Virus record (IMG/VR): IMGVR_UViG_3300009431_000002
Coordinates: 32,001 to 96,000 of that record
From: a virus
Taxonomy: Duplodnaviria > Caudoviricetes
Strand: one strand, 5' to 3'
DNA length: 64,000 nt
The notes beneath the pieces were generated by a model. It did no database searches, was not told where the DNA came from, and saw only the letters and a list, made by a program, of their open reading frames with translations. Below are positions 5,719 through 55,657 of this stretch, in pieces. The position numbers and the translations under genes are program-made. Position 1 is the first letter of the stretch. The number at the start of each line of letters is the position of its first letter.

Positions 5719-7098
5719 ATGAACTGGCGCTACTTCCGTCAGAAGGGCCGGCGGCACACGCTGGCCTGGCAGATCGCCGTCGCCGACGACACCGTCTTCG
5801 TCCACTACGGGATCGTGGACGGGCAGTTCCAAGACACCAGCGACACCAAGCGCCCCGTGAACGTGGGCAAGCGCAACGAGAAGTCCGCGGAGCAGGTGGC
5901 CCAGGAGAACGCCGAGAGGCAGATCCTGATGAAGCGCCGCTCCGGCTACTACGAGGTCGACGCCAAGGGCCGCCCGCTCGAGGCCGCGCCCGAGATGATG
6001 GACTTCGACGACATCCCCATCAGCCTCCGGTTCTGGAAGCCCACCAACACCCTGGGCGCCGGCATGGTCAAGAAGTTGGAGCGAGGGCACGCCTGGGCGG
6101 GCCGCAAGCGCAACGGCATGGCCTACCCGATGGTCGTCCAACCCGACGGGTCCGTGGACCTGTACAGCCGCGTGATGCTGCCGGCCCACCGCGAGGACCC
6201 GGAGACGCCGTGGAACCAGTACTTCCGCCACGTCGTGACCGAAGCCGAGGACATGGTCCGCCGGCACAGCATCCCGGGGGAGTCCATGCTCCTGGGCGAG
6301 CTGGTGGCCAGCCGCGACACCGACGACTTCTACTACGTCGAGTCCGTGACCGGCAGCCTGTGCGCCCGCGCGCAACGTCTGCAGGCCGAGCAGGGGCTCC
6401 TGCACTACTACTTCTGGGGCGTCGGCTTCTGGGGCGGCAAGCCCGCCTGCAGCCTGTGGCCGATGGGTCGGCAGTACGAGGTCCTCGAGGACCTGGCCTT
6501 CGGCGGCGAGTTCCTGCTGCCGCCCGACATCTTCTTCCCGGAGGAGATCGCTCGCTTCGTCGACAAGCACCAGACCGCCACGGCCGTCGTCGCCCTCCAA
6601 CAGGAGGCCATCGAGCGTGCGTGGGAGGGCTGGGTCGTCGTGGACCCCGAGCTCTCCCTCAAGGACCGCGCGTGGAACCTGCGGGGCAAGACCGACCGCT
6701 CCGCGCCGGTCGCCGGCAAGTGCAAGCCCATCTTCGAGGACGACTTCGTCGCCCTGTGGAACCCCGACGACGGCTACGGCAAGTGGGGCACTGGCAAGTT
6801 CCAGGGCTCCGTCGGCTCCGTGGCGCTGTACCAGTACACCACCAACGGCACGCTGACCTACATCTGCGACTGCAAGGGCGGCATCAAGGAGAAGGGCAAG
6901 GACCCCAAGGCTCCCCCCGACTCCTGCTGGCGCCACATCCTCGAGAACGTGGCCAGCTACCCGCTGGTCGTCGAGGTCCACTACGACTCCCGCACCTACG
7001 TCTCCAAGGGCGCCAAGACCGACGCCCTGTCCTTCCCGCGGATGGTCCGCATCCGCCACGACAAGGCCCCGGAGGAGTGCATCAACGAGGAGCTGTGA
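5719..7098 (+). CDS. ATP-dependent DNA ligase with WGR-like N-terminal domain
   Basis: KRNG motif I, LLGEL, EGWVV, KCKP, C-terminal OB fold ending LSFPR..RIRHDK...EC. Confidence 0.8.
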   Translation: MNWRYFRQKGRRHTLAWQIAVADDTVFVHYGIVDGQFQDTSDTKRPVNVGKRNEKSAEQVAQENAERQILMKRRSGYYEVDAKGRPLEAAPEMMDFDDIPISLRFWKPTNTLGAGMVKKLERGHAWAGRKRNGMAYPMVVQPDGSVDLYSRVMLPAHREDPETPWNQYFRHVVTEAEDMVRRHSIPGESMLLGELVASRDTDDFYYVESVTGSLCARAQRLQAEQGLLHYYFWGVGFWGGKPACSLWPMGRQYEVLEDLAFGGEFLLPPDIFFPEEIARFVDKHQTATAVVALQQEAIERAWEGWVVVDPELSLKDRAWNLRGKTDRSAPVAGKCKPIFEDDFVALWNPDDGYGKWGTGKFQGSVGSVALYQYTTNGTLTYICDCKGGIKEKGKDPKAPPDSCWRHILENVASYPLVVEVHYDSRTYVSKGAKTDALSFPRMVRIRHDKAPEECINEEL

Positions 7099-7113
7099 CG
7101 ACACTGTGTCGTC
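7097..7113. repeat. palindrome GACGACACTGTGTCGTC (copy 1 of dispersed operator-like site)
   Basis: 8-bp arms with a 1-nt centre, overlapping the ligase stop codon. Confidence 0.8.
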
Positions 7114-7129
7114 GACCGCGAAAGCGGTC
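7114..7129 (+). terminator. GNRA hairpin GACCGC-GAAA-GCGGTC after the ligase operon
   Basis: 6-bp stem with GAAA loop, no U-tract. Confidence 0.45.
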
Positions 7130-7138
7130 TACGATCCA

Positions 7139-7149
7139 GGGATAAGGGG
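7139..7149 (+). promoter_or_regulatory. phage promoter-like motif GGGATAAGGGG
   Basis: member of the recurrent G(G/C)NAYAAGG family, upstream of GGAGG and ATG. Confidence 0.6.
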
Positions 7150-7163
7150 TACGGAGGTGACCC

Positions 7164-7739
7164 ATGTATCGTTTCACGCTTCTCGCACTCCTGCTCGCCC
7201 TGGGGTGCACTCCGACCGTCTCGATGGAACCGGAGCCACAGTCCCACCACTGGCTCGACGATGACGACATCACGGCCGGCGACGACGACACCGTCGCTGA
7301 CGACGATGACGACGACTCGACGGGTGATGACGACACCGGCGACGACGACACCGCGGACGACGATGACGTTGGCGATGACGACTCCGCCGACGACGTCGGC
7401 ACCGTCACCGTCGACCCCGTGGAGATCGACCTCGGCGTGGTCCTCGTCGGCACCGACCGCTCCGAGATTCTGCACATGGAGGTGGTGGAGGGTGCCGGCA
7501 CGGTCGTCGTGGACATCGACGTCGCCGAGATCCTCGAGGCCGGCTTCACCGTCAATGGCTACGAGGCCGTGGTCGAACTCTCGGAGGATCCTTGGGCCAC
7601 GCCGGACTACTCGATGACGGTCATCGCGGAGCCGACCCTGGAGAGCCAGGTCGGCGTGTGGTCCGGAAGCATCTACATCGAGGCCTCACCAGGTGGCGAG
7701 GTCGTGGTGCCGGTGGTCGTGGAGGTGGTGCCGGAGTGA
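7164..7739 (+). CDS. predicted lipoprotein with Asp-rich GDDDT repeats and an Ig/ASH-like domain
   Basis: signal peptide with LALGC lipobox; (G/A)DDD(T/S) repeats; DPVEIDLGVVLVG. Confidence 0.75.
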   Translation: MYRFTLLALLLALGCTPTVSMEPEPQSHHWLDDDDITAGDDDTVADDDDDDSTGDDDTGDDDTADDDDVGDDDSADDVGTVTVDPVEIDLGVVLVGTDRSEILHMEVVEGAGTVVVDIDVAEILEAGFTVNGYEAVVELSEDPWATPDYSMTVIAEPTLESQVGVWSGSIYIEASPGGEVVVPVVVEVVPE

Positions 7740-7745
7740 CTGGTT

Positions 7746-7774
7746 CCCCGGGGGCCCTGCGGGGGCCTCCGGGG
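7746..7774. terminator. GC-rich hairpin between convergent genes
   Basis: CCCCGGGGGCCC...GGGGCCTCCGGGG. Confidence 0.55.
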
Positions 7775-7780
7775 CGGCGG

Positions 7781-14675: not shown

Positions 14676-15986
14676 CTACTTCTTCCCGAAGAACTCCTTC
14701 ACCACCTTCGGCCGCATGGCGACAGCGACCTTGCGGTTCGACAGGCACATCGAGCAGAAAGGTTGCTTCAGCCGGTCCTGCTGCAACAGGCGGTTGAGGA
14801 AGTGGGGCCGCAGGGTGTCGTGGAACTGCGGGAAGTTGTCGTAGTCGCGGCCGAGGTGCAGCGCCGTGTTCCGGCCGTTGGGGCAGATGTCGACCTTCCC
14901 CTCGCGCAGCGTGAACTTCGCGCAGTTGCAGTGCGCCGGCAACGACTTCGGCACCGGGACGACGGGGCCGTTCACCCGCTGCTCCCGTTCCGAGATGACG
15001 ATGTGCTTGGCCTCGCCGTACTTGCCGGCCTTCGGGAAGGCCTTGCGCACCGCGGCCACCTGGGCCTTGTTGCCGGAGTACTCCGAGATCCGAACGAGGT
15101 CGGCCATCTCCAGCACGGGCGCGTACTTCCTGGTGGTCTTCTCGGTGAAGGGCAGCACCGCGGTGAGGATGTCCACCTGGTCCGTCAGGCCGGACTCCTT
15201 GAGCCGCTTGACGCCGGCGGCGATGTACTTCCACATCAGAGGCTCGCCGCCGCAGAGCGTGATGACGCGGTAGTGGTAGCCCGACTGCTTGCTGTAGTCG
15301 ATGAAGCGGTCGACCTCGGCCAACGACATGTGGTGGTTGGGAGAGCCCTCCATCCACTCGCGGACGATGCAGGGCACGCACCCACCCGAGCAGGTCGTGG
15401 TGGCCATCAGCGTCATCTTCAGCACGGGTTTCCTGGCGAACCAGGTGCTCCCCGGGCCACGCTGGAGCTCCAGGCCCTGCAGGGCGCAGAACTCGTCCAC
15501 GGCGTGGATCACGCCTGGGAACCAGCCCGCGTAGTCGTGGCCCGCGAGCCACCCACCGGGCTTGACCTTGCCGTACCATGCCCGGAGGTCGGCCGAGACG
15601 TCCTTGTAGCCGTGGCCGGCGTCCACGAAGACCATGTCGAGGGTCCGGTCTCCGATCATCTCCGCCGCGTCCACCGACGGCATGTGCATCGGCCGCACGT
15701 CGCACTTGGCGTCGCCGCGCGTGATCTCCAGGAAGGTCGCCTTGGCGTCGCGGTGCTCCTGGACCGACTCGTCCCAGGAGTCCACGGCGTAGAGCACCGC
15801 GGGAGGAACGGCCTCGAGCATGTAGCTCGTGCTCAGCCCAGAATGGACCCCCACCTCGGCCATCGTCCGCACGCGCTTCTCCCGGACGAACTTGGCGTAC
15901 CACTCCCCCTCCTTGGGGAAGAACCACCCCATGACCTCGCGTCCGCGGAACTGCCTGCTGCCTCGACTCTTGAAGTTGATCGCCAC
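14676..15986 (-). CDS. Methyltransf_24-type O-methyltransferase fused to a radical SAM domain
   Basis: AEVGVHSG, AVDSW, VFVDAGH, KPGGWLAGHDY; CSGGCVPC (CX3CX2C), CGGEP, C-terminal Cys cluster. Confidence 0.85.
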   Translation of the reverse strand: MAINFKSRGSRQFRGREVMGWFFPKEGEWYAKFVREKRVRTMAEVGVHSGLSTSYMLEAVPPAVLYAVDSWDESVQEHRDAKATFLEITRGDAKCDVRPMHMPSVDAAEMIGDRTLDMVFVDAGHGYKDVSADLRAWYGKVKPGGWLAGHDYAGWFPGVIHAVDEFCALQGLELQRGPGSTWFARKPVLKMTLMATTTCSGGCVPCIVREWMEGSPNHHMSLAEVDRFIDYSKQSGYHYRVITLCGGEPLMWKYIAAGVKRLKESGLTDQVDILTAVLPFTEKTTRKYAPVLEMADLVRISEYSGNKAQVAAVRKAFPKAGKYGEAKHIVISEREQRVNGPVVPVPKSLPAHCNCAKFTLREGKVDICPNGRNTALHLGRDYDNFPQFHDTLRPHFLNRLLQQDRLKQPFCSMCLSNRKVAVAMRPKVVKEFFGKK

Positions 15987-19529: not shown

Positions 19530-19869
19530 GGAGTGTGTCCTCGAGCTCGGCCTCGTCGACCTCGCCGTCGGGTCCGCCGATGTCCAGCATCTCCTCGTCC
19601 TCGCCGTCCACCACCCCGTCCAGCAGGTTGGCGACTTGACGACCCATCCGAGGGTGCATCGGGACCATGTCGAGGGTGAGGTCCTTCGGGAAGTTGAAGA
19701 AGGAGCGCGAGCCCTTCCCCTCCCCCATCATCAGGCAGAGCTGGGTCTTCTCCGCGTTGTTCCGGTCGATGTACCGGATGATGAAGACGTCACCCGGAAT
19801 CACCTCCAGTACCCTCGTCCCCAACGCTTGCGTAGTGCGCTGCCCAGGGTGGCGGCGTGCGTCCGTCAT
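19516..19869 (-). CDS. hypothetical protein with acidic C-terminus
   Basis: GAGGA RBS. Confidence 0.65.
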   Translation of the reverse strand: MTDARRHPGQRTTQALGTRVLEVIPGDVFIIRYIDRNNAEKTQLCLMMGEGKGSRSFFNFPKDLTLDMVPMHPRMGRQVANLLDGVVDGEDEEMLDIGGPDGEVDEAELEDTLHGQL

Positions 19870-20100
19870 TTGGATCCTCCACTTCGGGCAAGGTCATGCT
19901 GTGGACGCCGGTGTGGCATCCACACTGCCTGACGACCAGCCCATCGGCCGACGGCAGGTACCGGACGGGCTGCTCACAGACTGGGCAGACCGTCCCCGCT
20001 GTCATCGGAGGCGTCACCGCCTCCTGGTTGTGCTTGAGGTGCCACAGGATCAGGTCCTGCTTGTACTCGATCCTCGCCAGTGCCTCCATGATCGCCTTCA
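19790..20100 (-). CDS. hypothetical zinc-binding protein
   Basis: GGAGG before GTG at 20100; CPVC...CGC. Confidence 0.6.
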
Positions 20101-20525
20101 CGGATCTCCTCCACCCTGTAGATGACGGCGCCGCTCGTGCTGGGCCCGAAGTGGAGCGCGAAGCGGCCTCCATCCGGGAAGCCTAGCAGCATGCTGTGCA
20201 CCACGGTCTTCGGCGGCACGCCGACCGGCTCCACGTCGAGGGCGAGGACCTTGCCGTACTTGAGCATCTGGGCCACGGTGTCCGGCGAGGCGCCGTACTC
20301 ACCCGGCAGCCCCATCCCACGGGTGGCGCGGTAGAAGTCCTCGGCGCCCATGGTCGTGAGCCGGTAGGGCTCGCCCTCCTGCGCCGCCCGCCCGAGGACA
20401 GGGTGGCAGATCATGTGGCTCGCCTTGCACCACGGACACGTCGGCGTGTCCGTGGCCTCCACCAGCGAGCCGTCCGGTGAGACGATGGCGACAGCCGCGA
20501 GGCAACCGGTACAGACGAAGATCAC
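19974..20525 (-). CDS. hypothetical zinc-binding protein
   Basis: CTGC...CPWC; GTGA coupling. Confidence 0.65.
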   Translation of the reverse strand: MIFVCTGCLAAVAIVSPDGSLVEATDTPTCPWCKASHMICHPVLGRAAQEGEPYRLTTMGAEDFYRATRGMGLPGEYGASPDTVAQMLKYGKVLALDVEPVGVPPKTVVHSMLLGFPDGGRFALHFGPSTSGAVIYRVEEIREGDHGGTGEDRVQAGPDPVAPQAQPGGGDASDDSGDGLPSL

Positions 20526-20929
20526 AGCTGACCCACTCCTCCCTCACCGGGCATGGACGGCTCGTGGTTGTATGACTCCCAGTCCGGGGCGTCGTCCACC
20601 TCGATGCCGGCCTCCTCGTCCATGTCGCCGAACGGGTCCTCGAGGCTTTCCGTCCGCGGTGGCGGCTGCTGTAGGACCCGCACCTCCGCGCCATCGGTGT
20701 GCGGCGCGGCCGGTGCTGGTGGCGCGGCGGGCTGCGACGACACAGTGTCGCCGGCCGGTGCAGAAGCGCCGGAGTCGGACTTCACCAGCCCCACGACCTT
20801 GGAGAGCTCCCGCTGGTCGATGACGACCTCCGCGGTGAGGCCGACGTCGTTCTTCAGGACCAGCGTGGTCGCCATCTGGCCACCGCGCTCCAGGTCCATC
20901 AGCTCTCCGACTCGGATGAGCCTGATCAC
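20522..20929 (-). CDS. hypothetical protein
   Basis: AAGGAGG before GTG at 20929. Confidence 0.65.
   Translation of the reverse strand: MIRLIRVGELMDLERGGQMATTLVLKNDVGLTAEVVIDQRELSKVVGLVKSDSGASAPAGDTVSSQPAAPPAPAAPHTDGAEVRVLQQPPPRTESLEDPFGDMDEEAGIEVDDAPDWESYNHEPSMPGEGGVGQL
20735..20753. repeat. palindrome CGACGACACAGTGTCGCCG (copy 2, intragenic)
   Basis: 13-bp core exact, one flank mismatch. Confidence 0.75.
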
Positions 20930-22298
20930 GTCCGCCTCCTTGCCCTCCGGACCTTGGAGGGTCGGGCACCCGCCCGTTCTCGCCACTCCTTGCTGCCGAT
21001 CCGCACCAGGTTGCCAGACTCCATCGCCTCGGCCCGGAGCTTCTCGGCCGCCGCCCCTCGGCGGCGCAGCCGCGACACCTGGGCCTGATTCGTCGTCGGG
21101 CCCAGCGGCCGGACAGCGATGGGCCCCATCGACGTCCAGTCGTGCAGCACGGCCTTCGCCTGCTGCTCGCGCTCCTTGATCTGGTCCTTCCGGAACGGGT
21201 AGAGCGCGTTACTGAAGTCCTCCAGTGCCTGTTGCACGTGCTTGCCCTCCTTGGGCGTCACGATTGCCTGGGTCAAGAGCCTGGCTTCCGTCCGCTGGAT
21301 CTCCTGCTTCCGTTGCCAGACCAACACCATGAGCGCCTCCTGCCAGCCCCCAGGATCGGGCATGCCGGCGAACTTGTCGTAGAAGATGTTCGCCAGTGCC
21401 CAGCCGACAGGAGTCGTTAGCCATTTCCCAGTGTCTCCACGTTGATGGCGTCGCGGATGCGGTCGTCGAACCACCCGTGGTTGAGCCAGATGTCCTGGAG
21501 GATGACGAACGGCCGCGTGAGGAGGTCGAAGAACTTCTTCTCGAAGGTCTCCTCGTCCACCTCGCCGTTCGACTTGCGGTGCTCGAGGATCTCCTCGTCG
21601 TTGATGCGGGTCACCGACAGCGCCACCTGCACCATGCCCATGACGGTGTCGTGGTACATCTGGCTCGGCCGTTCGCCGACAGTGCTCTTGACCACGTCCC
21701 AGGTGTAGCGCTTGGCGAACAGGTCCTCCTGCCCGCTCAGAGCCCGGAAGGTCACCTCGAACTTGCCCTCGACGATGGGGACACGCTGGATGCCCCCGCG
21801 GCCCACCACGTAGTGCCGGATGTCGATGGGCTCGCACCGGGCCTCGATGGCCTCCCTCACCTCGGGGTTGTCGAGCTGGTCGGTGCGCTGCTGCATCAGC
21901 ATCTCGAAGAACTTGGGGTCGACGTCGGGGCGCGGCTTGTCACCCTCCTCCGCCTGCTCTTCGACCGCGGCGTCCGCCTGCTGCGCTGGCTGCTCCTCAC
22001 CCTCGTCCGGGGGCGGCGAGGCCGCGGCCGGCCCGGAGCCGAGACCGCCTGTGCGGATGGAGTCGCGGAGCTCGTCGGCCGTGAACGCCTCCTCCTGCTC
22101 CGGCATCATCGGGGGCGCGCCTCGGTGGGCGTGGTCGGTCAGGACCGGCGTGCCCGCGAGCGGCTTCGCGTGGCCGAGCGGGACACCGCCCTCCTGGCCT
22201 CCGCGTTGCGTCGCTGCGGCGATCCGCTGCTTGTAGTTCTCGACAGCCGCGTCGTCTGCGCCGTCGCCGAGTTCCAGAACTTGTCGCTTTGTCGCCAC
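20926..22298 (-). CDS. -1 frameshift product (GT-like) of the tail-assembly-chaperone-like gene
   Basis: the -1 frame after GGGAAAT is open (GKWLTTPVGW...) to 20926 and has no good start of its own. Confidence 0.7.
21417..22298 (-). CDS. tail-assembly-chaperone-like protein (G form)
   Basis: ends ...ETLGNG* across the slippery heptamer; disordered N-terminus. Confidence 0.6.
   Translation of the reverse strand: MATKRQVLELGDGADDAAVENYKQRIAAATQRGGQEGGVPLGHAKPLAGTPVLTDHAHRGAPPMMPEQEEAFTADELRDSIRTGGLGSGPAAASPPPDEGEEQPAQQADAAVEEQAEEGDKPRPDVDPKFFEMLMQQRTDQLDNPEVREAIEARCEPIDIRHYVVGRGGIQRVPIVEGKFEVTFRALSGQEDLFAKRYTWDVVKSTVGERPSQMYHDTVMGMVQVALSVTRINDEEILEHRKSNGEVDEETFEKKFFDLLTRPFVILQDIWLNHGWFDDRIRDAINVETLGNG
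21423..21429 (-). other. programmed -1 ribosomal frameshift heptamer G GGA AAT
   Basis: XXXYYYZ in the correct phase, one codon before the TAA stop. Confidence 0.75.
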
Positions 22299-22301: not shown

Positions 22302-22730
22302 CTATCCCTCCGAGTAGTTCTTGCCCGGGTGCCGGTATGCCGGCGCGCCGGACGGAATGAAGTCCAACGGGGTGACGGGGGCGGCCGGCGGGGGCGCCGG
22401 CTGCGCCTGCAGCGCGGACTTCAACGTCGCGCCGACCGCCGACTCCCACTTGTTGCCGCACCCCTCTGCGAGGCACCGCCAGATGATCTTGCGCGGGCAC
22501 GTGGTGCCCTGCACCGCCGTGGACCCACACCTCGGGCACGTGGGCACGCGAGGTGCCTGCTTCTTCTCCGGGACCTTGCCTGTGCCCGCGGAGATCGCGT
22601 CTTGGATGCCGCCGATCCCCTGCTGGTGCTCGAGGTCCTCCAGCCACCGCTGCTCGTCGGGCGTCCGTTCCCCCGCCGGGATCGCCCGGAGCTTCCGGAG
22701 GATGTCCTGCCTCTTGGCGTCAAGACCCAA
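22302..22730 (-). CDS. zinc-ribbon protein
   Basis: CPRCG...WRC..EGCGNKW. Confidence 0.65.
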   Translation of the reverse strand: MGLDAKRQDILRKLRAIPAGERTPDEQRWLEDLEHQQGIGGIQDAISAGTGKVPEKKQAPRVPTCPRCGSTAVQGTTCPRKIIWRCLAEGCGNKWESAVGATLKSALQAQPAPPPAAPVTPLDFIPSGAPAYRHPGKNYSEG

Positions 22731-23422: not shown

Positions 23423-23698
23423 CTAGCGTTCGCGCTCGGTGTCAAGCGCGACGATGGTGATGTCGAGGCCAACAGCGTGCGCGAGCCGGCGCACGACGCG
23501 GATGCCTGGGCTCCTGGTTTTGCCGGACAGCGCGCCGTGTACGGTCTGGCGGGTGACGCCGCCGACTCGGTCTGCGACGTCCTGGTAGGAGAGGTTCTGA
23601 CGGACGCGCTGCGCCTCGATCACCTGGACGATGGGATCGGTGATGGCGGACCCTTCCTCACCAGCGAGATGCTCGGCACGTCGAAGTCCTCCTGGCAT
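23423..23698 (-). CDS. XRE-family helix-turn-helix protein (start uncertain)
   Basis: RVRQNLSYQDVADRVGGVTRQTVHGALSGKTRSPGIRVVRRLAHAVG. Confidence 0.75.
   Translation of the reverse strand: MPGGLRRAEHLAGEEGSAITDPIVQVIEAQRVRQNLSYQDVADRVGGVTRQTVHGALSGKTRSPGIRVVRRLAHAVGLDITIVALDTERER
23440..23445 (-). promoter_or_regulatory. TTGACA -35 box upstream of the 23388 gene (weak -10)
   Basis: TGTCAA on the + strand; no clear TANNNT at 17 nt. Confidence 0.4.
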
Positions 23699-26235: not shown

Positions 26236-27165
26236 ATGCGCCACATCACCATCGACCGGAACTTCTGCCGGCTGTTCGCGTTCGTCGGAGACGACAGCCG
26301 ACCGCACCTGATGCCCATCTACATCGACGACGACGGCACCGCCTGGGCCACCAACGGCCACCTGATGCGCAAGGTCCCACTCCCGCCGCAGGGGAGCAAG
26401 GTGCCCCCCACCGCCCTCCTCTTCGACAAGCGGGTCAAACTCCTCGACGTGGATGAGACCGTGGTGCTCGACGTGGACGAGACCCCCACCAAGCACGCCG
26501 AGTACGGCACGTTCGCGGCGCCCGGCCGCCCCGGCATCAAGGGGAAGCTGGCCAACCTCGATGCCCGGCCGGACTACTCCTACGCCGTCCCGACGGTGGA
26601 CGAGGAGTTCGTCCTCCGCCGGCGCTACTTCATCGAGGTCCTGCGGTCGTTCGGCGACCACTTCGCCGTGCGCGCTGGTCTCCACCTCAGCTGGTCCGAC
26701 CGGCACCAGCGGCGCATCATCGACCCGTTCAGCGGCGTGCTCTTCAGCACACCCGACGCCCGCGACTTCGCCGTCGTGATGCCGGCGCGGCTGGACGACG
26801 TGGCGCACCTCCACGGCCGACGTCGGCGCGTGGTCGTCGAGTCCCCCTACGCTGGTTCGATGCCCGAGGAGATCCAGGCCAACGAGACCTACGCTCGGGC
26901 CTGCATGGTCGACTGCCTGTCGCGCAACGAGGACCCCATCGCCTCCCACCTCCTCTACCCCCAGGTCCTCGACGACACAGTGTCGTCGGAGCGAGAGACC
27001 GGCATGAACGCCGGCTTCAACTGGCGTGCTGTCGCAGACATGACCGTGGTATACGATGACCGAGGCATCACGCCGGGGATGCAGAAGGGCATCGAACACT
27101 CCGAGGCCATCGGCGTTCCGGTCGTGCGCCGCACCCTCAAGATGGAGACGGACGATGCTCGCTGA
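26236..27165 (+). CDS. sliding-clamp-like N-domain fused to a nucleoside deoxyribosyltransferase-like (DUF4406/DUF7768-type) domain
   Basis: AWATNGHLM, VVMPARL; VVVESPYAG, PIASHLLYPQVLDD, ERETGM, VVY.D.GITPGMQ.GI. Confidence 0.65.
   Translation: MRHITIDRNFCRLFAFVGDDSRPHLMPIYIDDDGTAWATNGHLMRKVPLPPQGSKVPPTALLFDKRVKLLDVDETVVLDVDETPTKHAEYGTFAAPGRPGIKGKLANLDARPDYSYAVPTVDEEFVLRRRYFIEVLRSFGDHFAVRAGLHLSWSDRHQRRIIDPFSGVLFSTPDARDFAVVMPARLDDVAHLHGRRRRVVVESPYAGSMPEEIQANETYARACMVDCLSRNEDPIASHLLYPQVLDDTVSSERETGMNAGFNWRAVADMTVVYDDRGITPGMQKGIEHSEAIGVPVVRRTLKMETDDAR
26970..26988. repeat. palindrome CGACGACACAGTGTCGTCG (copy 3, intragenic)
   Basis: perfect 9-bp arms inside a CDS. Confidence 0.8.
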
Positions 27166-38112: not shown

Positions 38113-39330
38113 ATGCCAGACAGGTTCAGACTCGAAGACCATTGCCAGCTGGTGCGCATCAGCGACGAGTGGTGGGCTGCGGACATCGTGCTCACAGAGT
38201 CGCTGGCCAAGCTGTTCATCCGCACCATGCTCCCCAACCGCCGGATCACGTGGCGCCACGTCCACCGCATGGCCATCGACATCCTCGAGGGGAACTACCC
38301 GTTCAACCCCTTCGAGCCGATGGAGTTCGATGTCGACACGGGCCGGATGCGGGGCGGCCAGCAGCGCTGCCACGCCCTCCTGCTGGCGTGCAAACGCCGT
38401 CCTGGGACCACCGTGAGGGTGGCCATCGTCAAGTGCCCCAAGACCGCGATGTACGGACAGGGACTGCCGCAGAAGCCCAAGGACTTTCTGGATACGCCGA
38501 GGGCCGCGCTGAAGACGAAGGTGGCGGCGTTCCTGTGGCTGCTCGAGCGCGGGCCGCGGGCTGTCACTGGATCCTGGCGACCGACTACCGCGCAGATCCT
38601 GGAGACTTACATGGCGTGGCAGGACCTGGTGGATGTCTCGGCCGAGGAGATCCCGACGATGGGCGGGGTGGATTTCCGGCACCACTGCTGCGGCAACTAC
38701 GCGTGGTTCATCGCCCTGGACTGCATCTTCCGGAAGATCGACGACACCAACGCCCGGATCTTCAGGCGACAGGTCGTGGTGGGCGAGGGCCTGGAGGAGG
38801 GCGATCCGGCGCGGACGCTGCGCATCCGCCTCAACGGCCTCGCCACCGACCTGAAGTCCGGTGCCAAGATGAAGTACCACCACAAGCAGCCGTGGTACCG
38901 GATGGCCATGGCTATCCTGGCGTGGAACGCCTTCTCCCAGGACAACGCGCTCAAGCGCCTTACTCAGTCCGCCGACCCCGACACCTTCCCGGAGATCCGC
39001 GGCTGGCTGCGGTGGGTGAGCATCTCATGGCGCCCGCCCAAGACGCGGCCGACGGATCTGTACCTGGAGATGGAGGGCAAGCTCGAGCCCCAGGCCGGCC
39101 CCCCGCAGCCCCCCGAAGACGACATCAAGAAGGAGATGGCGCGACGCGTCGACGGCACCGGCAAGTACTGCTACGACATCTCGAGGTTGCGCCACGTCGC
39201 CGTTGTGACGGGGCTGATGACCGAGGTTGTGGCCGAGACCATGGTCCGCCAGCAGCTGGTGGACGCGATCAAGGCGTCGGGGCTGTCGGTGGAGGCGTTC
39301 CGGACCGAGGTGTGGGGTGACCACGCCTGA
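38113..39330 (+). CDS. ParB/Srx-like N-terminal domain protein
   Basis: NRRIT..HV.RMA.DILEG......MEFD..G.MRGGQQRCHAL (variant of DGQHRL). Confidence 0.6.
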   Translation: MPDRFRLEDHCQLVRISDEWWAADIVLTESLAKLFIRTMLPNRRITWRHVHRMAIDILEGNYPFNPFEPMEFDVDTGRMRGGQQRCHALLLACKRRPGTTVRVAIVKCPKTAMYGQGLPQKPKDFLDTPRAALKTKVAAFLWLLERGPRAVTGSWRPTTAQILETYMAWQDLVDVSAEEIPTMGGVDFRHHCCGNYAWFIALDCIFRKIDDTNARIFRRQVVVGEGLEEGDPARTLRIRLNGLATDLKSGAKMKYHHKQPWYRMAMAILAWNAFSQDNALKRLTQSADPDTFPEIRGWLRWVSISWRPPKTRPTDLYLEMEGKLEPQAGPPQPPEDDIKKEMARRVDGTGKYCYDISRLRHVAVVTGLMTEVVAETMVRQQLVDAIKASGLSVEAFRTEVWGDHA

Positions 39331-40177
39331 TGGTGGCGCGGCGCTTGAGGCGCACCGGCTCATGCAAGAGGCGTTGGATCGTCTCGGCGCCGGGGATGTC
39401 GTCCGGGCGAAGCGCGCCGCGAAACGCGCGTTCTTGCTGCTGGGCGATGTGGTTGCTGCGTCGAAGCAGCCCGTTCCGCTGCTCCGCTCCGATGAGGTGG
39501 ACTGGTCCAGGTGGGACGGGCTGCTCGGTGTGATCGACGACGAGTCCCTCGCACCGCTGATCGGTTGCAGCGTCTGGGCCGTTGGCAGGCGGCGTTGCAA
39601 GCGCGGAATCCGCCACTCCAGGTGGGTCGAGTGGACCCCGAGTGCGCTGGCGCTTCTAGGCCGCGTGAGCGACACGGATGCTGCTGCTGTGCTCGGGTGC
39701 ACCCACTCTTCGGTTCGACAGAAGCGGCTGTCGTTGGGCATCCCCCTCTACCGTGCCGAGCCGCCGGAGTGGCGCGGCCTTGTGGGCAAGGTGCCCGATG
39801 CGGAACTGGCACGTGAGTATGGCGTATCTGTCCACACAGTGCGGGATCGTCGTCGAGCTGCCGGGAAGAAGCCCTGCCCAGGTACAGGCAGCGGCCTGGA
39901 GTGGATCGATGAGGACGATGCGATTCTGGGCACCATGCCTGATTCCCGTGTAGCCAAGCTCGTGGGTTGTTCGGCGTCGTCTGTCGGAAACCGCCGGCGT
40001 GAACTGGGGATCCCCGCGTTCTCAAAGTACGACTGGGCTCCGCATGAGCACCTGCTCGGCAAGATCTCGGATGAGGAGATGGCGCGTCTCGTTGGCTGCA
40101 CTGTGCGCGGCGCAGAGAATCGGCGGCGGAAGCGGGCGCGGGGTATTCCCATGCCGGGACGTTGGCCGAAGTCGTGA
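39317..40177 (+). CDS. protein with tandem ~40-aa HTH-like repeats
   Basis: five LLG.(V/M/I).D...A...G.S...V..RR..LGI repeats. Confidence 0.7.
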   Translation: MTTPDGGAALEAHRLMQEALDRLGAGDVVRAKRAAKRAFLLLGDVVAASKQPVPLLRSDEVDWSRWDGLLGVIDDESLAPLIGCSVWAVGRRRCKRGIRHSRWVEWTPSALALLGRVSDTDAAAVLGCTHSSVRQKRLSLGIPLYRAEPPEWRGLVGKVPDAELAREYGVSVHTVRDRRRAAGKKPCPGTGSGLEWIDEDDAILGTMPDSRVAKLVGCSASSVGNRRRELGIPAFSKYDWAPHEHLLGKISDEEMARLVGCTVRGAENRRRKRARGIPMPGRWPKS

Positions 40178-44845: not shown

Positions 44846-45228
44846 TGGCAGTCATCCACCCCTTCATGCACGTCCCCACGTTCCTGGCCAAGGTCCTCGA
44901 GGAGGTCGAGGTCGACCAGACGACGTGGGAGGCCATCGCCGACGAGATGGGGCTCACGCCCCAGGACCTCGAGGACCTCGTGGTGTGGTGCCAGTCCAAG
45001 CACAAGGACACCCACCGCTTCTGCTGCTTCATGCGCCGTGCGTTCGCGCACGACGTCGAGGAGTGGGGCGTCTTCAACCCCTACGCCGACGGCGAGGCCT
45101 TCCCCGAGGAATGGAAGGAGCCCGCCGACGCCATCCGTGATGGCTGGGAGCCCTACAGCCACTCCAACTCCTCCCTCGAGGACCCACCCTGTGTGATAGA
45201 ACGTGTCTTCCTGCGGAGGCCGTGCTGA
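44845..45228 (+). CDS. hypothetical protein
   Basis: TGATG coupling. Confidence 0.65.
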   Translation: MAVIHPFMHVPTFLAKVLEEVEVDQTTWEAIADEMGLTPQDLEDLVVWCQSKHKDTHRFCCFMRRAFAHDVEEWGVFNPYADGEAFPEEWKEPADAIRDGWEPYSHSNSSLEDPPCVIERVFLRRPC

Positions 45229-46478
45229 TGGAGCTGTCCGAGAAGAAGCAATCGCTGTTCGACCTCACCCGTGAGCTGCTGGACATCGCCTGGAAGGCCG
45301 ACAAGAAGTCACCGACGTCCGTGGCGCTCGCATGCCTCTCGTCCGTGGGGGCCATGAAGACCTACGTCCAGAGCCAGGACACGCTGCAGCGGCGGGTCAG
45401 GCGCCTCGGCGTGGAGGAGGAGTACACGGCGATGCGCTCCTTCCTCTACGAGGCGCTGGTCCGCATCTGCGGCCACCCCGAGGTGGACTGGGTGAGGGGC
45501 GACAACGAACTCCACCGCTTCGACCTCAACGGCACCCACGCCTACTTCCTCAAGGCCAAGAACGAGCCCGAGGTGAAGAACGGCGCCTACCTCTCCAACA
45601 AGGAGGCGTTCGGCCGGGTCTTCCGACGCATGTTCTGGGAGAAGCAGGGCGGCGACGCCGTCACCCTGCTCACACGCAAGCACCGCTGGATGACCTTCAT
45701 CGTCCCCCACCAGTGGGTCGGCGAGGCTGGGGCCGTGGTCGGCAAGCACGACCCCGAGACCCTGCTGGAGCGCCTGCAGCCCTTCCTCGACCGGGGCATC
45801 GGCTGCACCCTCCTCATCGCCGGGCAGCCCGGCACAGGCAAGACCTCGCTGGCCCGCCGTGTGGCGGGCACACGGGGCAAGGTCCTGCGCGTCACACCCG
45901 AGGCCATGGAGCACATCCCAGCGCCCACCTTCATCGAGATCGTGGAACTCACGGCGCCCGACGTCCTGCTGCTCGACGACTTCGACCGGGCCGGGAGCTG
46001 GTGGACCACCCGCTTCCTGGAGCAGATCGAGTCCCTCAACGAGCAGGCACGGTCGACCGGGAGGCTCGTCATCGCCACGGTGAACAGCCTCAAGTCCCTC
46101 GACAGCGCCCTGAAGCGGCCCGGCCGCTTCGACATGCTCGTCGTGGTGGACCTGCCTACGGCCACGGAGCGGCGTGCCATCCTGGCCCACTACCTCGAGA
46201 AGATGGGGGTCCGTGGTGTCACCCACCAACGGCTCGTGGCGCTGGGGCGCAAGACCAAGGGCATGCCCGGGGCCTACCTCGAGCTGCTCGCCGAGCGCAT
46301 CTCCATCTACGGCGTCGAGCACATCAACCGGGAGATGGCCGACATCAAGCAGCACTTCGAGCTGTGCCACGACTTCGAGGAGTCCAAGTACATCCACGAC
46401 CTACTCAGCGGCGCCCTAGCCAAGCAACGTGAGGAGGGCGGGAGCGAGAGCGGTCCGTCGACCGTGGAGAAGGCGTGA
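45228..46478 (+). CDS. AAA+ ATPase (classical clade, BCS1-like architecture)
   Basis: GQPGTGKT, LLLDD, ATVN..LD.ALKRPGRFD. Confidence 0.88.
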   Translation: MELSEKKQSLFDLTRELLDIAWKADKKSPTSVALACLSSVGAMKTYVQSQDTLQRRVRRLGVEEEYTAMRSFLYEALVRICGHPEVDWVRGDNELHRFDLNGTHAYFLKAKNEPEVKNGAYLSNKEAFGRVFRRMFWEKQGGDAVTLLTRKHRWMTFIVPHQWVGEAGAVVGKHDPETLLERLQPFLDRGIGCTLLIAGQPGTGKTSLARRVAGTRGKVLRVTPEAMEHIPAPTFIEIVELTAPDVLLLDDFDRAGSWWTTRFLEQIESLNEQARSTGRLVIATVNSLKSLDSALKRPGRFDMLVVVDLPTATERRAILAHYLEKMGVRGVTHQRLVALGRKTKGMPGAYLELLAERISIYGVEHINREMADIKQHFELCHDFEESKYIHDLLSGALAKQREEGGSESGPSTVEKA

Positions 46479-47107
46479 GCCCCCTGCCTCCAGACTTCGA
46501 CATCCTGCAGCACATCAACCTCGCCATCGTGCCCGAGGAGCGGCCCCGAGACGAGAATGGCCTGCTACTGGGCACAGCGAGGTTCTGGGTGGCGACGCAG
46601 GGCATGGCGAAGTTCAGCCGGCCCGAGCTGGAGATGCGCTACCTGCACTTCCTGTCCGTGCCCCAGGCCCTCCAGACCCTCGGCACCCTCGCCCACCACA
46701 GCGTGGCCGTGAACCCCATCCGGCCTGGTCAGCAGATCAAGGACGTGACGGGGTTCACCCCCTGCTACCTGCAGGGCGTGGCGACCGACAACCCCTTCTG
46801 GAAGGGCAAGGGCGTGCAGTGCGTGCGGCTCGTGGTCGTGCGCATCGAGTTCCACGCCTGCGGGCAGTGCGGCACCAAGAGCGGTGACGCAGCAGTGGGC
46901 GAGGGCATCGCCGTCGACCCAGAGTTCATGTCCGCCTTGGTGCTGGTCCACGGCCTCGGCTGTCCCGACGACGAGCAGGACGCCGTGGACTTCTGGGCGC
47001 CCATCCTCGCCGACACGTTCCCCTGGCCAGACGACAAGATCGAGCGGCTGTGCCGCACGATCCACCGCAACATCGTTGCGAAGCACGGTGAGTCCGGGGG
47101 AGGATGA
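46475..47107 (+). CDS. hypothetical protein
   Basis: GTGA coupling. Confidence 0.65.
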   Translation: MSPLPPDFDILQHINLAIVPEERPRDENGLLLGTARFWVATQGMAKFSRPELEMRYLHFLSVPQALQTLGTLAHHSVAVNPIRPGQQIKDVTGFTPCYLQGVATDNPFWKGKGVQCVRLVVVRIEFHACGQCGTKSGDAAVGEGIAVDPEFMSALVLVHGLGCPDDEQDAVDFWAPILADTFPWPDDKIERLCRTIHRNIVAKHGESGGG

Positions 47108-47136
47108 ATTTCGACCCGGGGCTACTGCACGACGAT

Positions 47137-47478
47137 TCAGCGGCGGCCCCGATTGGAGCTCCCCTCTTGGCGCTTCGGCGCACGGGGACCCCCTCCCCCG
47201 GGTGAGGGAGGGGAGCTCCTCTTTAGCCTGGGAAGCTGCAGCATCTTGAGCATCAGGGCAGCGAGGCCCGGACGCTTCTTCTCCGGTGGCGTGCAGATCC
47301 GCAGCCTGTCCCCGGGCTTGGGCGTGCGGTGGGTCGGGAACCGCACCCACGTACTGCCGTTCCACACCTGGACGCCGAACTTGGCCGCCTCAGGCATCCA
47401 GCCGAGCTGGTGCAGGACGAGGTTCAGCGGCCGCGCAGGGATCTCACGGGTCTGCCCACGGTTCGTGATGGTCGTCAT
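47137..47478 (-). CDS. possible ThiS/MoaD-like beta-grasp protein with a basic extension
   Basis: ITNRGQTREI..PLNLVLHQLG...VQV.N...PKPGDRLRI. Confidence 0.4.
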   Translation of the reverse strand: MTTITNRGQTREIPARPLNLVLHQLGWMPEAAKFGVQVWNGSTWVRFPTHRTPKPGDRLRICTPPEKKRPGLAALMLKMLQLPRLKRSSPPSPGGGGPRAPKRQEGSSNRGRR

Positions 47479-47687
47479 GCCTCGGCTGCCCCGGGGTAGA
47501 GGTGATCGAGGAGCTCGGGATGCAGCCGCAGGAGGTTGACGAGCGCCGGGGCGAAGGTCGCTGCCGCCAGGCGCGCCGCCAGGTCCTCGGCGAAGCCCTC
47601 GGGGCAGTCGTCGATGGTCTCCTGCAGCGTACGCTCCAGCAGTGGCGACACTGTGTCGGCGAACGCCGTGTGCAGGGGGTCGGTCAT
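47475..47687 (-). CDS. hypothetical protein
   Basis: ATGA coupling. Confidence 0.6.
   Translation of the reverse strand: MTDPLHTAFADTVSPLLERTLQETIDDCPEGFAEDLAARLAAATFAPALVNLLRLHPELLDHLYPGAAEA
47646..47658. repeat. palindrome CGACACTGTGTCG (copy 4, intragenic)
   Basis: exact 13-bp core. Confidence 0.7.
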
Positions 47688-48022
47688 CGTAGTCCGAACG
47701 CATCCGGGTGCAGGGCGAACCCGTTGACGTACTGGCCGGTCGAGTCCTCGAGGGTCAGGTAGAGGATCACGTCCTCCACGTTGAAGCCCACCTGGATGTC
47801 GCCGTTGATCACACGCTCCAGGTAGGACGTGACGGCCTCTGCGAGGGCCTTGGGCTCTGCGATGTGGCCCTCGTCCGTGAGCTTGAAGGCCGGCAGCACG
47901 TCTCGCTCGAGCAACCGCCGCACATGGAGTGAACGAACCTCACCAGCGGGCATGCGCTGGTCAACAGCGCCGCCGTCGATGGCAACTACCTTCCTGGGCG
48001 CAGGCTCAGGACGTGTCCGCAT
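47684..48022 (-). CDS. hypothetical protein
   Basis: GGAGG RBS. Confidence 0.7.
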   Translation of the reverse strand: MRTRPEPAPRKVVAIDGGAVDQRMPAGEVRSLHVRRLLERDVLPAFKLTDEGHIAEPKALAEAVTSYLERVINGDIQVGFNVEDVILYLTLEDSTGQYVNGFALHPDAFGLR

Positions 48023-48025
48023 GAG

Positions 48026-49021
48026 CTACACCTCCACTTCGGGGGTTTCTGGAACACCCACCGCTTCATCATCCCGCCGCACTGAGGGCATCGGCGCGTC
48101 ACCGGCGCGCCTTTCCGGCATCACCCCCGTGGGAGCGGGCGCTTCGTCCGTCGTTTCTTGCTTCGCACTGGCTCTCCTTGCGTTGCGGGCGGCCAACCTG
48201 TCGCTGAACGATGTCGGCAGCCTCGTCGGCGCCACCGCAGGGCCTGCGGGACGCCTCGGGGTCACTGTAGCAGGGTTCTGGACGTCCACGTCGGCCAAAC
48301 GAGCCCGTTCAGCCCTCTGTAGGCGTGCCCGACGGGCCCTGTCGGCCGTCGTGAGGCCGCGGAAGGCACTCCCACGGCCGTAGATGGCCCCCAAGGTGTC
48401 CACAGGGACGCCTTTGAAGCCTCGACCGAGCATCTCGGCGACCAGACGCTGGTCCTCACCACGTCCAGGGGTCCACCAGATGCCCGACTTGGCCCCCACG
48501 ACGCCTGCGCGGTGCATCAACTCGTCCGGGATGACCGTCCCGAGCTGCCAGGGGATGCCCGGACCGAACTTGGGCTCGGCCACGAGCCGCTCGTGGACCG
48601 AGTTCTCCCAGTCCGGGCCCTGGTTGCGCACGAACATGGTCCTGGACCAGCAGAAGTCGATGTCTGGGCGGGCGTCCATCACCTTCACCCGGTGCTCGAG
48701 GGCCCAGGGGGTCATCACGTCGTCGTCATCGAGGTAGGCGATGTACTTGCCCTTGGCGATCTTGACGCCCTCGTTGCGCTGCAGGCCCCCTGAGATGCCC
48801 AGGGCCACTGGGAGCCGCAGAACACGCAGCCTGGGGTCGTACTTGCGCAGGATCTCGAGGATGTCGGCCGTGTGGTCGGTCGTGGCGTCGTCGACGACAA
48901 TCACCTCGATGTCCTGCAGCGTCTGGCCGAGGCACGAGAGCACGGCGCCCGCCATGATGCGGTCGCGTGACTCGCCCGGCGGGCCTCCAGTGGGGATGAT
49001 GACGCTGGCTACGACGTTCAA
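48026..49021 (-). CDS. GT2 glycosyltransferase with a basic/disordered tail
   Basis: SVIIPT, QTLQDIEVIVVDDATTD, RNEGVKIAKGKYIAYLDDDD; TTG start after GGAG. Confidence 0.88.
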   Translation of the reverse strand: MNVVASVIIPTGGPPGESRDRIMAGAVLSCLGQTLQDIEVIVVDDATTDHTADILEILRKYDPRLRVLRLPVALGISGGLQRNEGVKIAKGKYIAYLDDDDVMTPWALEHRVKVMDARPDIDFCWSRTMFVRNQGPDWENSVHERLVAEPKFGPGIPWQLGTVIPDELMHRAGVVGAKSGIWWTPGRGEDQRLVAEMLGRGFKGVPVDTLGAIYGRGSAFRGLTTADRARRARLQRAERARLADVDVQNPATVTPRRPAGPAVAPTRLPTSFSDRLAARNARRASAKQETTDEAPAPTGVMPERRAGDAPMPSVRRDDEAVGVPETPEVEV

Positions 49022-54017: not shown

Positions 54018-54526
54018 GTCCTGTCCTCCCTCGGGTAGCGGACCTCGATGGCTGTGCGCGCCACCTCGTAGTCACCCTCGACGTCCGTCGTCATGTGGAT
54101 GCGCGCCGGAAGGCCATCCTCGTTCGGTGACAGCACGTGGATGAGCTTGTGCTCCGACTCGGGCTTCCCGTCTTCCCCCGGGAAGCTCACCGTGCCGACG
54201 ATCATCAGTTCGTGGGCCAGCATGGGCCACCGCTTGCTGGGGTAGTCGCCCGACGCACCCACACCGCCCACCCACGGCACGCCAATCACCGGCAGATCCC
54301 CGGTGACGTCGACGAACACCTCCGGCACGAAGTCTCCCCACTGCTGGTGGTCTCGGCCGGTCTTCTGCCACCGTCGGGCAGCGACCATGCCTGCGTCGAC
54401 GGCCCGGATGCCCTCGTCGGGGCGCTGGACATCCACGATGAAGTGGAACACCCCTGAGTCGTCGCGCATCTCCACGACAATCCGCTTGTGGCCTCTGCCG
54501 ACGACGGCATCGCCGACCCCCGTCAT
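54014..54526 (-). CDS. hypothetical protein
   Basis: ATGA coupling. Confidence 0.65.
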   Translation of the reverse strand: MTGVGDAVVGRGHKRIVVEMRDDSGVFHFIVDVQRPDEGIRAVDAGMVAARRWQKTGRDHQQWGDFVPEVFVDVTGDLPVIGVPWVGGVGASGDYPSKRWPMLAHELMIVGTVSFPGEDGKPESEHKLIHVLSPNEDGLPARIHMTTDVEGDYEVARTAIEVRYPREDRT

Positions 54527-55173
54527 GTCCAGATCTCCTGCACCCAGCGGCACTCCTTGGGCTTGGGTCCACGGACGCCCGTGTGGTCCTTGTACATCAG
54601 CCGCCAGGGGTGAACGGGGTCATGGCCAAGCAGCAGTCCATGCCCGAGCTCGTGGGCGAGGACGCAGACGCTGTCGAACTTGGACAGGTCGTCAGGGATG
54701 AAGATGCGGCCGGCGATGACCTTGCGGCTGAGGTTCCAGAACAGCTCGCAGTCGCCGAGCTCCTCCCCCTTGCCCTGCGGCGACGTGGATGTGTCGCCGT
54801 GGACGCCGAACCCGCCGACGGTGCTGGCGCCGAACTGGGTCTTGCCGTCGAGCGGCTCGAAGTCCCGGCACCCCACCATCAAGTCCTTGCTGCCCAGGTA
54901 GTCGAAGTCCACCAGCATGAAGGCGGGGCCGATGCCGGCGCGCTTCTTGAGCCGGTGGTTCCAGATCTCCGTGGCGCGGCGCAGCGCGTCCTGGACGTGG
55001 TCCGGTGTGTCGGGCCACCAGCCCACGCGCAGGGGCAGCGGGTGCTCTGGAAGCAGGACGGGCTGGGCCATCTGGGCCTTGCGCAGCTTGCGCGGGCGCC
55101 CAACCAACTCCTCGGCCATGTCCGGGTCCAGCGGGACCCGCAGGCGAATCTTCTCAGCGGTCAGCGGCATCAC
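54523..55173 (-). CDS. matrixin/metzincin (M10-like) metalloprotease
   Basis: HELGHGLLLGH (HExxHxxxxxH) and the LMY Met-turn. Confidence 0.85.
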   Translation of the reverse strand: MMPLTAEKIRLRVPLDPDMAEELVGRPRKLRKAQMAQPVLLPEHPLPLRVGWWPDTPDHVQDALRRATEIWNHRLKKRAGIGPAFMLVDFDYLGSKDLMVGCRDFEPLDGKTQFGASTVGGFGVHGDTSTSPQGKGEELGDCELFWNLSRKVIAGRIFIPDDLSKFDSVCVLAHELGHGLLLGHDPVHPWRLMYKDHTGVRGPKPKECRWVQEIWT

Positions 55174-55528
55174 TTCCCCCAGCGGCCTTGAGCCTACGAT
55201 CTCGTTCCACCAGTGCCAAGACGATCTCCTCCTCGCCCATGCCCCGGGCCACCATCTGTCGGATGGCCTCGTCCTCGGGCAGGGCGTCGAGGACGGCCGT
55301 GGTCGGTAGGGCGATGGGCTTGCCGTCGATGGTCACCCGCCACGGCTCGACGAGCTGAACGGCCCCCTCGTCGCCGACGAGCGTGAACGTGCAGTGCCCG
55401 TACTCCAGCAGCTGCATGACGAGCAGGGCGCCGAGCTCCCACCGACAGGCCTCCGAGGTCATCGTCTTTCGGTCGATGGGGACCTCTTCCGAGGCCGTCT
55501 TGGCGCGCTGCTTTGACTTGACTCGCAT
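55154..55528 (-). CDS. hypothetical protein, probably leaderless
   Basis: ATG 7 nt after a GATACT -10-like box. Confidence 0.65.
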   Translation of the reverse strand: MRVKSKQRAKTASEEVPIDRKTMTSEACRWELGALLVMQLLEYGHCTFTLVGDEGAVQLVEPWRVTIDGKPIALPTTAVLDALPEDEAIRQMVARGMGEEEIVLALVERDRRLKAAGGSDAADR

Positions 55529-55535
55529 CGGCACG

Positions 55536-55565
55536 AGTATCGTTCCGTAGCGTTCAGTCTGTCAA
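55536..55565 (-). promoter_or_regulatory. sigma70-like promoter TTGACA-18-GATACT
   Basis: + strand TGTCAA at 55560-55565 and AGTATC at 55536-55541. Confidence 0.55.
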
Positions 55566-55632
55566 CCGATTCCATGACAAACTCCAGGCTGTTGCAACGG
55601 AAACTCCTCTACGAGAGGCAGGGCACCTTGGG

Positions 55633-55657
55633 GGTCGACGACACTGTGTCGTCGACC
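55633..55657. repeat. 25-bp palindrome GGTCGACGACAC-T-GTGTCGTCGACC (copy 5)
   Basis: perfect 12-bp arms between divergent promoters. Confidence 0.85.

Follow-up and report, generated by a model that had tools for sequence, protein, structure and literature searches.

An evenly spaced, invariant 13-bp palindrome dispersed through a 202-kb phage genome and its concerted switch in a sister lineage

What reads a perfect 13-bp palindrome that recurs at widely separated places in a phage chromosome, mostly inside genes? The question is raised by a 64,000-nucleotide stretch of viral DNA (hereafter the window), which comprises bases 32001–96000 of the 201,921-bp IMG/VR virus record IMGVR_UViG_3300009431_000002 (G000; 67.3% G+C; rated complete by CheckV). 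The palindrome, CGACACWGTGTCG, has five exact matches in the window, at 7099, 20738, 26973, 47646 and 55639, all five as listed in a first-pass annotation made from the sequence alone. The answer argued here, to which we give a probability of about one half, is that the palindrome is the site of one dimeric reader of duplex DNA, probably encoded by the phage, and that the evenly distributed set of sites most likely serves a chromosome-wide job. The five copies lie in the following settings.

7099..7111 (genome 39099), intergenic; immediately after the TGA that ends the preceding 461-aa gene, with 112 bp between it and the next gene
20738..20750 (genome 52738), inside the open reading frame (ORF) 20522–20986 on the minus strand, in the D-T-V-S frame
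26973..26985 (genome 58973), inside gene 26236–27165 on the plus strand, which has a DUF7768 domain; read as GAC-ACA-GTG-TCG, or DTVS
47646..47658 (genome 79646), near the 5′ end of the small gene 47475–47687 on the minus strand, in the DTVS frame
55639..55651 (genome 87639), in the divergent intergenic region between 55154–55534 (minus strand) and 55746–56696 (plus strand, an AAA_5 ATPase); a 23-bp palindrome

The set is real and extends well beyond the window. The claim that the motif stands far above chance holds, since 100 dinucleotide-preserving shuffles of the window yield a mean of 0.00 copies, and a search of the window with two mismatches allowed adds only one match, at chance level. 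Counting over the entire genome, a check proposed with the first-pass annotation, came out in its favor: the 201,921 bp of G000 contain 15 exact copies where about 0 would be expected, and CGACACWGTGTCG is both the most frequent 12-mer and the most frequent 13-mer of the genome. Every occurrence of CGACA-N3-TGTCG in G000 is the motif itself. An exact 15-mer scan of IMG/VR returned 51 contigs with single, chance-like matches and no second carrier of the motif. The window has no match in Rfam, and 10 kb of it gave no megablast match among GenBank phages.

Gene calls made on G000 with a caller based on G+C at third codon positions (GC3) gave 229 genes and a coding share of 90%. Five of the 15 copies are intergenic (genome coordinates 15183, 39099, 87639, 103984 and 150188), and the other ten are intragenic, including one in an ORF that the caller missed. 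The copy at 15183 (L001:14957–15327) lies between two divergent tRNA operons and overlaps a TTGACG hexamer. The earlier observation that three window copies sit inside coding sequences on either strand was confirmed for 26973 (plus strand) and for 47646 and 20738 (minus strand), all read as GAC-ACW-GTG-TCG. The missed ORF is the host of the copy at 20738.

20522..20986, minus strand, ORF hosting the second copy; G+C by codon position 0.75/0.48/0.85; contains the peptide AGDTVSSQ

This ORF is taken as coding-like because its GC3 is 0.85. It belongs to a 1.1-kb interval (window 19825–20925) to which the GC3-based caller assigned no genes, yet which has coding periodicity on the minus strand (ORFs 19974–20525 and 20522–20986).

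The intragenic copies are under selection on DNA, not on protein. Eight of the ten share the frame GAC-ACW-GTG-TCG (D-T-V-S), which is the reading of the motif with the fewest rare codons. The called proteome contains seven DTVS tetrapeptides where 0.93 would be expected from composition, all seven spelled GAC-ACW-GTG-TCG, and the eighth lies in the missed ORF. The codons involved are indeed uncommon, as had been suspected: ACA makes up 4% and ACT 3% of threonine codons, 7% for ACW together. When codons are shuffled synonymously within genes, the intergenic copies stay and the intragenic ones fall from the 9 seen in called genes to about 0.2; this shuffled-codon control, too, had been put forward with the annotation and decides in its favor. 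Read on the coding strand, 5 of the in-frame sites have A as their central base and 3 have T (5 versus 2 when only called genes are counted).

When the 15 sites are aligned, 13 positions prove invariant, with A or T at the centre. The flanks are partly conserved, with T in 23/30, C in 24/30, G in 21/30 and A in 14/30 half-sites, so that the dyad with its flanks spans about 21 bp (tCGA-CGACAC-W-GTGTCG-TCGa); past ±10 bp from the centre the alignment has no conservation. Because no flank is conserved beyond this distance there is no −10 element at the sites, and a phage promoter, which would show a second conserved element, is ruled out. A bipartite promoter candidate of G000 occurs 2 times, both away from the palindromes. 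Near-matches in G000 number one with 1 mismatch and three with 2 mismatches, which is the chance count when the true sites are masked. A depletion of near-cognate sites was considered, but the 1–2-mismatch deficit disappears with the same masking and is not built on. Variants with 3 mismatches are fewer in G000 (27) than in codon-shuffled genomes (41.7 ± 5.6). By our own reckoning from the motif, 13 invariant bases carry more information than is required for picking 15 positions in 202 kb, and a chance copy of the site in a host genome is unlikely.

A site of such rigor could be the target of a nuclease. The copies would then be places of cleavage, nicking, recombination or replication initiation, and spaced breaks or nicks would seed recombination-dependent replication. 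The all-or-none character of the sites, with 13 invariant bp and near-matches at chance only, fits this proposal, as does a site information above the need (in our reckoning) for 15 positions in 202 kb. The genome has RecA-like and RusA-like genes, and the candidate enzymes would be an HNH protein or a PD-(D/E)XK homing-endonuclease-like protein, the latter encoded in the tRNA cluster between tRNA-Ser and tRNA-Val (L001:13434–13829, minus strand; PDDEXK_5, E = 6e-38). We take PDDEXK_5 to be the family of I-Ssp6803I, a cutter of a pseudo-palindrome. However, double-strand cutting at a symmetric site would fragment the genome, and the location of the endonuclease gene in a tRNA cluster resembles that of selfish homing genes. 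Furthermore, no endonuclease homolog was found in the 104 kb of DNA from the sister lineage described below, the equivalent region lying outside that coverage. A nuclease target is a lesser rival and, on balance, improbable.

The main clue to function, in our view, is the even spacing. Gaps between neighboring sites in G000 range from 5.7 to 23.9 kb, about one site per 13 kb, with a coefficient of variation (CV) of 0.40, an evenness that has P = 4e-4 on a linear and P = 2e-4 on a circular map. The same property is found in a second lineage. Relatives were found via the RNA polymerase (RNAP) and capsid genes, and the sister lineage consists of G001, G002, G003 and G006, which are pieces of one phage, together with the somewhat diverged G004. 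Its major capsid protein is 85% identical to that of G000, and its RNAP 65–67%. In the G003 fragment the spacing has a CV of 0.36 (P = 9e-3).

The sites spaced in this way in the sister lineage have another sequence. The commonest 12-mers there make up a different palindrome, CGACAGWCTGTCG, which has g...c as flanks, with 8 copies in 74 kb of G003, 6 in 40 kb of G004 and 8 in 63 kb of G006; five of the last are common to G003. The motifs differ by the innermost pair next to the central base, where C6/G8 has become G6/C8 with the dyad symmetry kept. Neither lineage holds a single cross-use or hybrid site, and the change has thus been made in concert throughout the set. Within the sister lineage the new core is under purifying selection: around six sites shared by G003 and G004, the flanks (150 bp on each side) are 86% identical and the core is identical at 78 of 78 bases, central base included, an invariance that has a probability of about 1e-5 at the rate of the flanks.

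The sister-lineage sites use the same reading frame as those of G000, here giving D-S/R-L-S. In RNAP, the peptide D-R-L-S is written GAC-AGA-CTG-TCG in the sister lineage and GAC-CGG-CTC-TCC in G000, the same peptide with common codons. Similarly, in the large terminase (TerL) the sister sequence R-D-R-L-S carries the motif, and G000 has R-D-R-L-A with common codons. Since these conserved peptides have been recoded, the sites appear to be placed where the protein sequence permits, and the change of motif shifted which places were usable. The small gene 47475–47687, host of the fourth window copy, has a sister-lineage ortholog without a site.

Only two comparable positions are common to both lineages, and both are intergenic. 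One lies between the divergent genes 121 and 122 (window 55639, equivalent to G006 50051), where each lineage has its own motif; the other is the convergent junction of genes 182 and 183 (genome 150188, equivalent to G003 22567). Intragenic sites fall in different genes, or at different spots in the same gene, and the site density is similar in both lineages despite this turnover. What is kept seems to be a distributed set and not particular addresses. At the convergent junction the sister palindrome extends to about 23 bp (gggtgCGACAGaCTGTCGcgccc; L035:2540–2600, G003 about 22555–22590), whereas the G000 palindrome there is followed by a distinct, GC-rich hairpin that has a T-run.

Another way for a palindrome to work is by folding into a hairpin, whether in RNA or in single-stranded DNA; it might then be, for instance, a terminator, a site of processing or a hairpin promoter. 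With its flanks the motif could form a stem of 9–10 bp, folding is strong at 55639 (z = −4.8), and a palindrome yields the same hairpin from either transcribed strand. Nevertheless, among the five copies in the window the fold z-score varies between +0.3 and −4.8, and one copy leaves the palindrome unused. The sites are not followed by a T-run, ten of the 15 are inside genes, and separate, ordinary hairpins follow the palindromes at 150188 and 39099; the latter, GACCGC-GAAA-GCGGTC, is an element of its own after the first window copy. Instead of covarying, the arms do not vary at all, and the pair that switched occupies an obligatory loop position. Since this pair lies where a hairpin cannot pair, its symmetric change argues for a reader of symmetric duplex DNA and not for an RNA hairpin, which we consider extremely unlikely.

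The switch could in principle reflect a change of host, if the phage exploits a protein of the host, for instance a global regulator or nucleoid-associated protein, as the reader of the sites; a different motif would then mean a different host. Such a reader would agree with the fact that no phage protein is singled out as the binder. On the other hand, the two lineages were recovered in part from sibling samples (3300013111, 3300013112 and 3300013120), and a 15-mer scan of GTDB gave, among the matches listed, scattered single hits in unrelated phyla, a weak point against a host reader. This origin is very unlikely. That the motif switch is lineage-specific suggests instead that the reader is probably encoded by the phage.

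The preferred explanation is then a protein dimer of two-fold symmetry that would read the 13–21-bp duplex site with very high stringency and would co-evolve with its sites. The even spacing and the lost positional conservation suggest that this reader acts outward from each site. The protein may load or be anchored at the sites and then spread, slide or bridge, so as to cover the whole chromosome, for which KorB on O_B, ParB on parS or Noc on NBS could serve as models. In view of the high site information, the sites could also mark the phage DNA as distinct, that is, as 'self' versus the host genome. The sites are shown to be real, selected as DNA, evenly spaced and switched in concert; we infer the dimeric form of the reader, its phage origin and the effect of its binding. 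Any explanation has to account for even spacing in two lineages, for a density that is kept while positions mostly are not, and for a concerted switch accompanied by rare-codon recoding, and it is on the spacing, the density and the switch that a chromosome-wide job is argued. The first-pass annotation had proposed a genome-wide system of protein-binding sites for which parS, matS and stoperators offered precedents. The 15 copies and the codon shuffle uphold its core, a dyad set selected at the DNA level, and the identity with parS or matS does not survive.

parS has a 16-bp consensus of the TGTTNCACGTGAAACA type, and that of matS is GTGACRNYGTCAC. CGACACWGTGTCG differs from both. Its GAC-to-GTC spacing is N5, compared with N3 in matS (MatP was not searched for), and parS identity is contradicted in addition by the lack of a ParB_N domain (PF02195) in the six-frame translation of G000 at E ≤ 1, a search to which control genomes respond. 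ParA is absent among the Pfam families listed, no search aimed at ParA or a partition ATPase having been made.

The main rival is local transcription control, in which a phage repressor or activator dimer would use the intergenic copies as operators and the intragenic copies as stoperator-like roadblocks. The stoperators of Cluster A phages provide a precedent (PMC6550527). Five of the 15 sites are intergenic though about 90% of the genome is coding, one of them between divergent tRNA operons, and of the two sites kept in place, one lies in a promoter region between divergent genes and the other where genes end convergently. Helix-turn-helix (HTH) proteins of the XRE family are encoded, and one of them, the HTH_31 protein of gene 188, has a sister ortholog with two residues changed in the predicted recognition helix (SGEYIRQ versus STEYIRL). 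However, the sites are symmetric, and their central base (5 A, 3 T) has no orientation to transcription, on which grounds the stoperator analogy drawn earlier fails. Intragenic positions are not kept between lineages, while density and even spacing are, and sister-lineage sites occur inside essential late genes (RNAP, TerL). No integrase is among the Pfam families listed (25 of 43 and 25 of 36; called proteins of up to 700 aa). Control of this kind is possible but unlikely, and gene-by-gene promoter control is less likely than a chromosome-wide job.

Several points weigh against a dimeric reader with a chromosome-wide job. The evenness rests on 15 sites in one lineage and 8–11 in another, and the two are related. 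The two intergenic positions common to both lineages would suit local regulation too, one being a divergent promoter region and the other a place where genes end convergently. Thirteen invariant bp without a halo of weaker sites are more typical of nucleases or recombinases than of regulators. The lack of a ParB_N domain counts here as well, no single protein is singled out as the reader among the DNA-binding candidates of G000, and the likeness of the first candidate below to ParB/Srx proteins is weak (Z about 5). Three candidates are encoded in the window.

38113..39330, plus strand, candidate reader A, 405 aa; N-terminal domain weakly like the ParB/Srx fold and a possible C-terminal three-helix HTH (low-confidence model)
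39362..40177, plus strand, candidate reader B, an ORF missed by the caller that overlaps the end of candidate A in its longest reading
23423..23623, minus strand, candidate reader C, a 66-aa XRE-family HTH_3 protein

Candidate A had been described as ParB-like, and ParB identity is not borne out. The protein has no sequence match in Pfam, NCBIfam or the PDB. An exhaustive HMMER search gave 287 relatives, whose consensus D-G-Q-H-R corresponds to G-G-Q-Q-R in candidate A. Among 60 family members none matches the Pfam models of ParB or DndB, the only Pfam match being GHMP_kinases_N in one member (E 0.004). In the AlphaFold (AF2) model (pLDDT 83), residues 16–118 align with sulfiredoxin (Srx), PadC, ParB, Noc and KorB at Z 4–5.1, weak values below the advised trust level, over 85 residues with a root-mean-square deviation of 3.5–4.7 Å; ParB/Srx-type proteins are consistently at the top, and the viral 'DGQHR domain' clusters of the Atlas match at TM 0.55–0.8. 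Judged by this model, candidate A is a putative remote member of the ParB/Srx superfamily and not a ParB, its predicted likeness being confined to the N-terminal ~100 residues.

Candidate B contains four to five tandem HTH-like repeats (LGxSxxSVxxRRxxLGIP), with HTH_AsnC-type and HTH_23 matches above the Pfam cut-offs, in a region of lower local G+C (0.62). The pair of genes A and B seems to be present also in a third lineage (samples ERZ247946xx), in which orthologs of a site-bearing gene and of the DGQHR-like gene are found. It is conceivable, if doubtful, that a non-canonical ParB/Srx-superfamily protein (38113, together with the multi-HTH gene) spreads from sites about 13 kb apart and coats the whole chromosome or marks it as 'self' during lytic infection.

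Candidate C had been called correctly as an XRE HTH, and two ribbon-helix-helix proteins listed with it were not found in the window. Elsewhere in the genome, the gene of an IHF-like protein (gene 200) lies 357 bp downstream of the site at 165661, and the HTH_31 protein of gene 188 is a further DNA binder, whose sister ortholog has a palindrome site within its own gene. An HTH_17 excisionase-type protein adjoining the terminase gene was ranked low, as it is conserved in relatives without palindromes. Filtering by presence and absence could not isolate a clade-specific binder, given that no more than 28 of the 229 G000 proteins are detectable in distant relatives.

The phage itself encodes a fused β-β′ RNAP in a single chain of 2025 aa and 29 tRNAs, along with DNA polymerase A, a DnaB-like helicase, a large terminase, a sigma-like protein, an IHF/HU-like protein, and D12 and C5 DNA methyltransferases. 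It is probably lytic. Distant relatives of the RNAP occur in Vibrio phages D181/D148/D69 and in Salmonella phage Arash, and the paper on Arash does not mention repeats. At least 288 IMG/VR proteins are related to its major capsid protein, many of them encoded on contigs 180–210 kb long, by which G000 is placed in a very large uncultured family of ~200-kb phages; the family carries a single-chain RNAP and is related to Arash. No further high-GC relatives were added from metagenome contigs via RNAP, and neither a dispersed palindrome nor any other dispersed 12-mer was found in about 100 more distant relatives (loci of 10–26 kb and one 133-kb record). Two repeated 12-mers in relatives were rejected as dispersed palindromes, that of L017 being a coding tandem repeat and that of G005 part of a CRISPR-like array. 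The array, in the 133-kb, 50% GC record G005 (68575–69580; L030:8575–9580), has 16 copies of a 36-bp repeat ending in ...CAAAGAAGTAGGTACAG, with spacers of ~36 bp and a period of ~72 bp.

The sister terminase has 988 aa (G003 45070–48036, L036) compared with 589 aa in G000, and homologs (P0003, P0005) of a site-bearing 563-aa gene contain Hint/LAGLIDADG inteins. Given the difference in terminase length and these homologs, inteins appear to have been gained and lost in core genes of this phage family.

If the idea of a spreading ParB/Srx-superfamily protein is true, the palindromes would be a phage-wide marking of the chromosome in which selection acts on spacing and not on position. The even spacing, the kept density and the concerted switch also make the question testable, in that a reader is to be sought whose specificity differs between the lineages.

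Dispersed invariant palindromes are a known kind, since at least the Cluster O mycobacteriophages, and their function has never been explained. In Cluster O (Corndog), a 17-bp dyad repeat, TGTTCGG-N3-CCGAACA, occurs in 34 copies in ~70 kb, about one third inside genes and unlinked to promoters, and a dimeric binder was predicted for a function left unexplained (PMC4351075). G000 has the same traits, with 15 of 15 cores invariant, 10 copies intragenic and 5 intergenic, and no promoter element beside them: in both, the arms of the inverted repeat are invariant, the copies are dispersed and partly intragenic without a link to promoters, and the phage is apparently not temperate. Cluster O phages also encode proteins with ParB-like domains. 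However, the arms are 7+3+7 in Cluster O and form here an odd 13-bp palindrome around a single central W, the copies number 34 in ~70 kb there and 15 in 202 kb here, and the intragenic share is two-thirds here compared with about one third. The Cluster O repeats become denser toward one genome end, whereas the spacing here is significantly even, and the concertedly switched motif documented in the sister lineage sets the present case apart.

KorB of the IncP plasmid RK2 loads at O_B, slides and acts at a distance (PMC11790492). As here, a palindrome with an odd central base is dispersed on a mobile genome and some copies lie far from promoters. Nevertheless, KorB is a ParB_N CTPase and no ParB_N is detectable in G000, the O_B sequences are unrelated to CGACACWGTGTCG, and RK2 is a plasmid, unlike the 202-kb phage G000, which has an RNA polymerase of its own and is probably lytic. 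The stoperators of Cluster A are bound by a monomeric immunity repressor in temperate phages and are asymmetric and oriented with transcription (PMC6550527, PMC9283540). They share with the present set their 13-bp length, their large number over the whole genome with some copies in genes, and the joint divergence of motif and reader between lineages, but the sites of G000 are perfectly symmetric and unoriented.

The systems parS/ParB, Noc/NBS and matS/MatP resemble the present one in that high-information palindromes, often intragenic, mark a replicon or region for a dimeric reader, and matS is likewise an odd palindrome of 13 bp. parS sites cluster near the origin, in contrast to the even spread in G000, and to our knowledge CGACACWGTGTCG matches no parS, NBS or matS consensus. 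Relative to all of these, the novelty of the present case lies in a spacing that is statistically even in two lineages, in the concerted switch of motif with relocation of sites and recoding of conserved peptides, and in the setting in a jumbo phage that has its own single-chain RNA polymerase.

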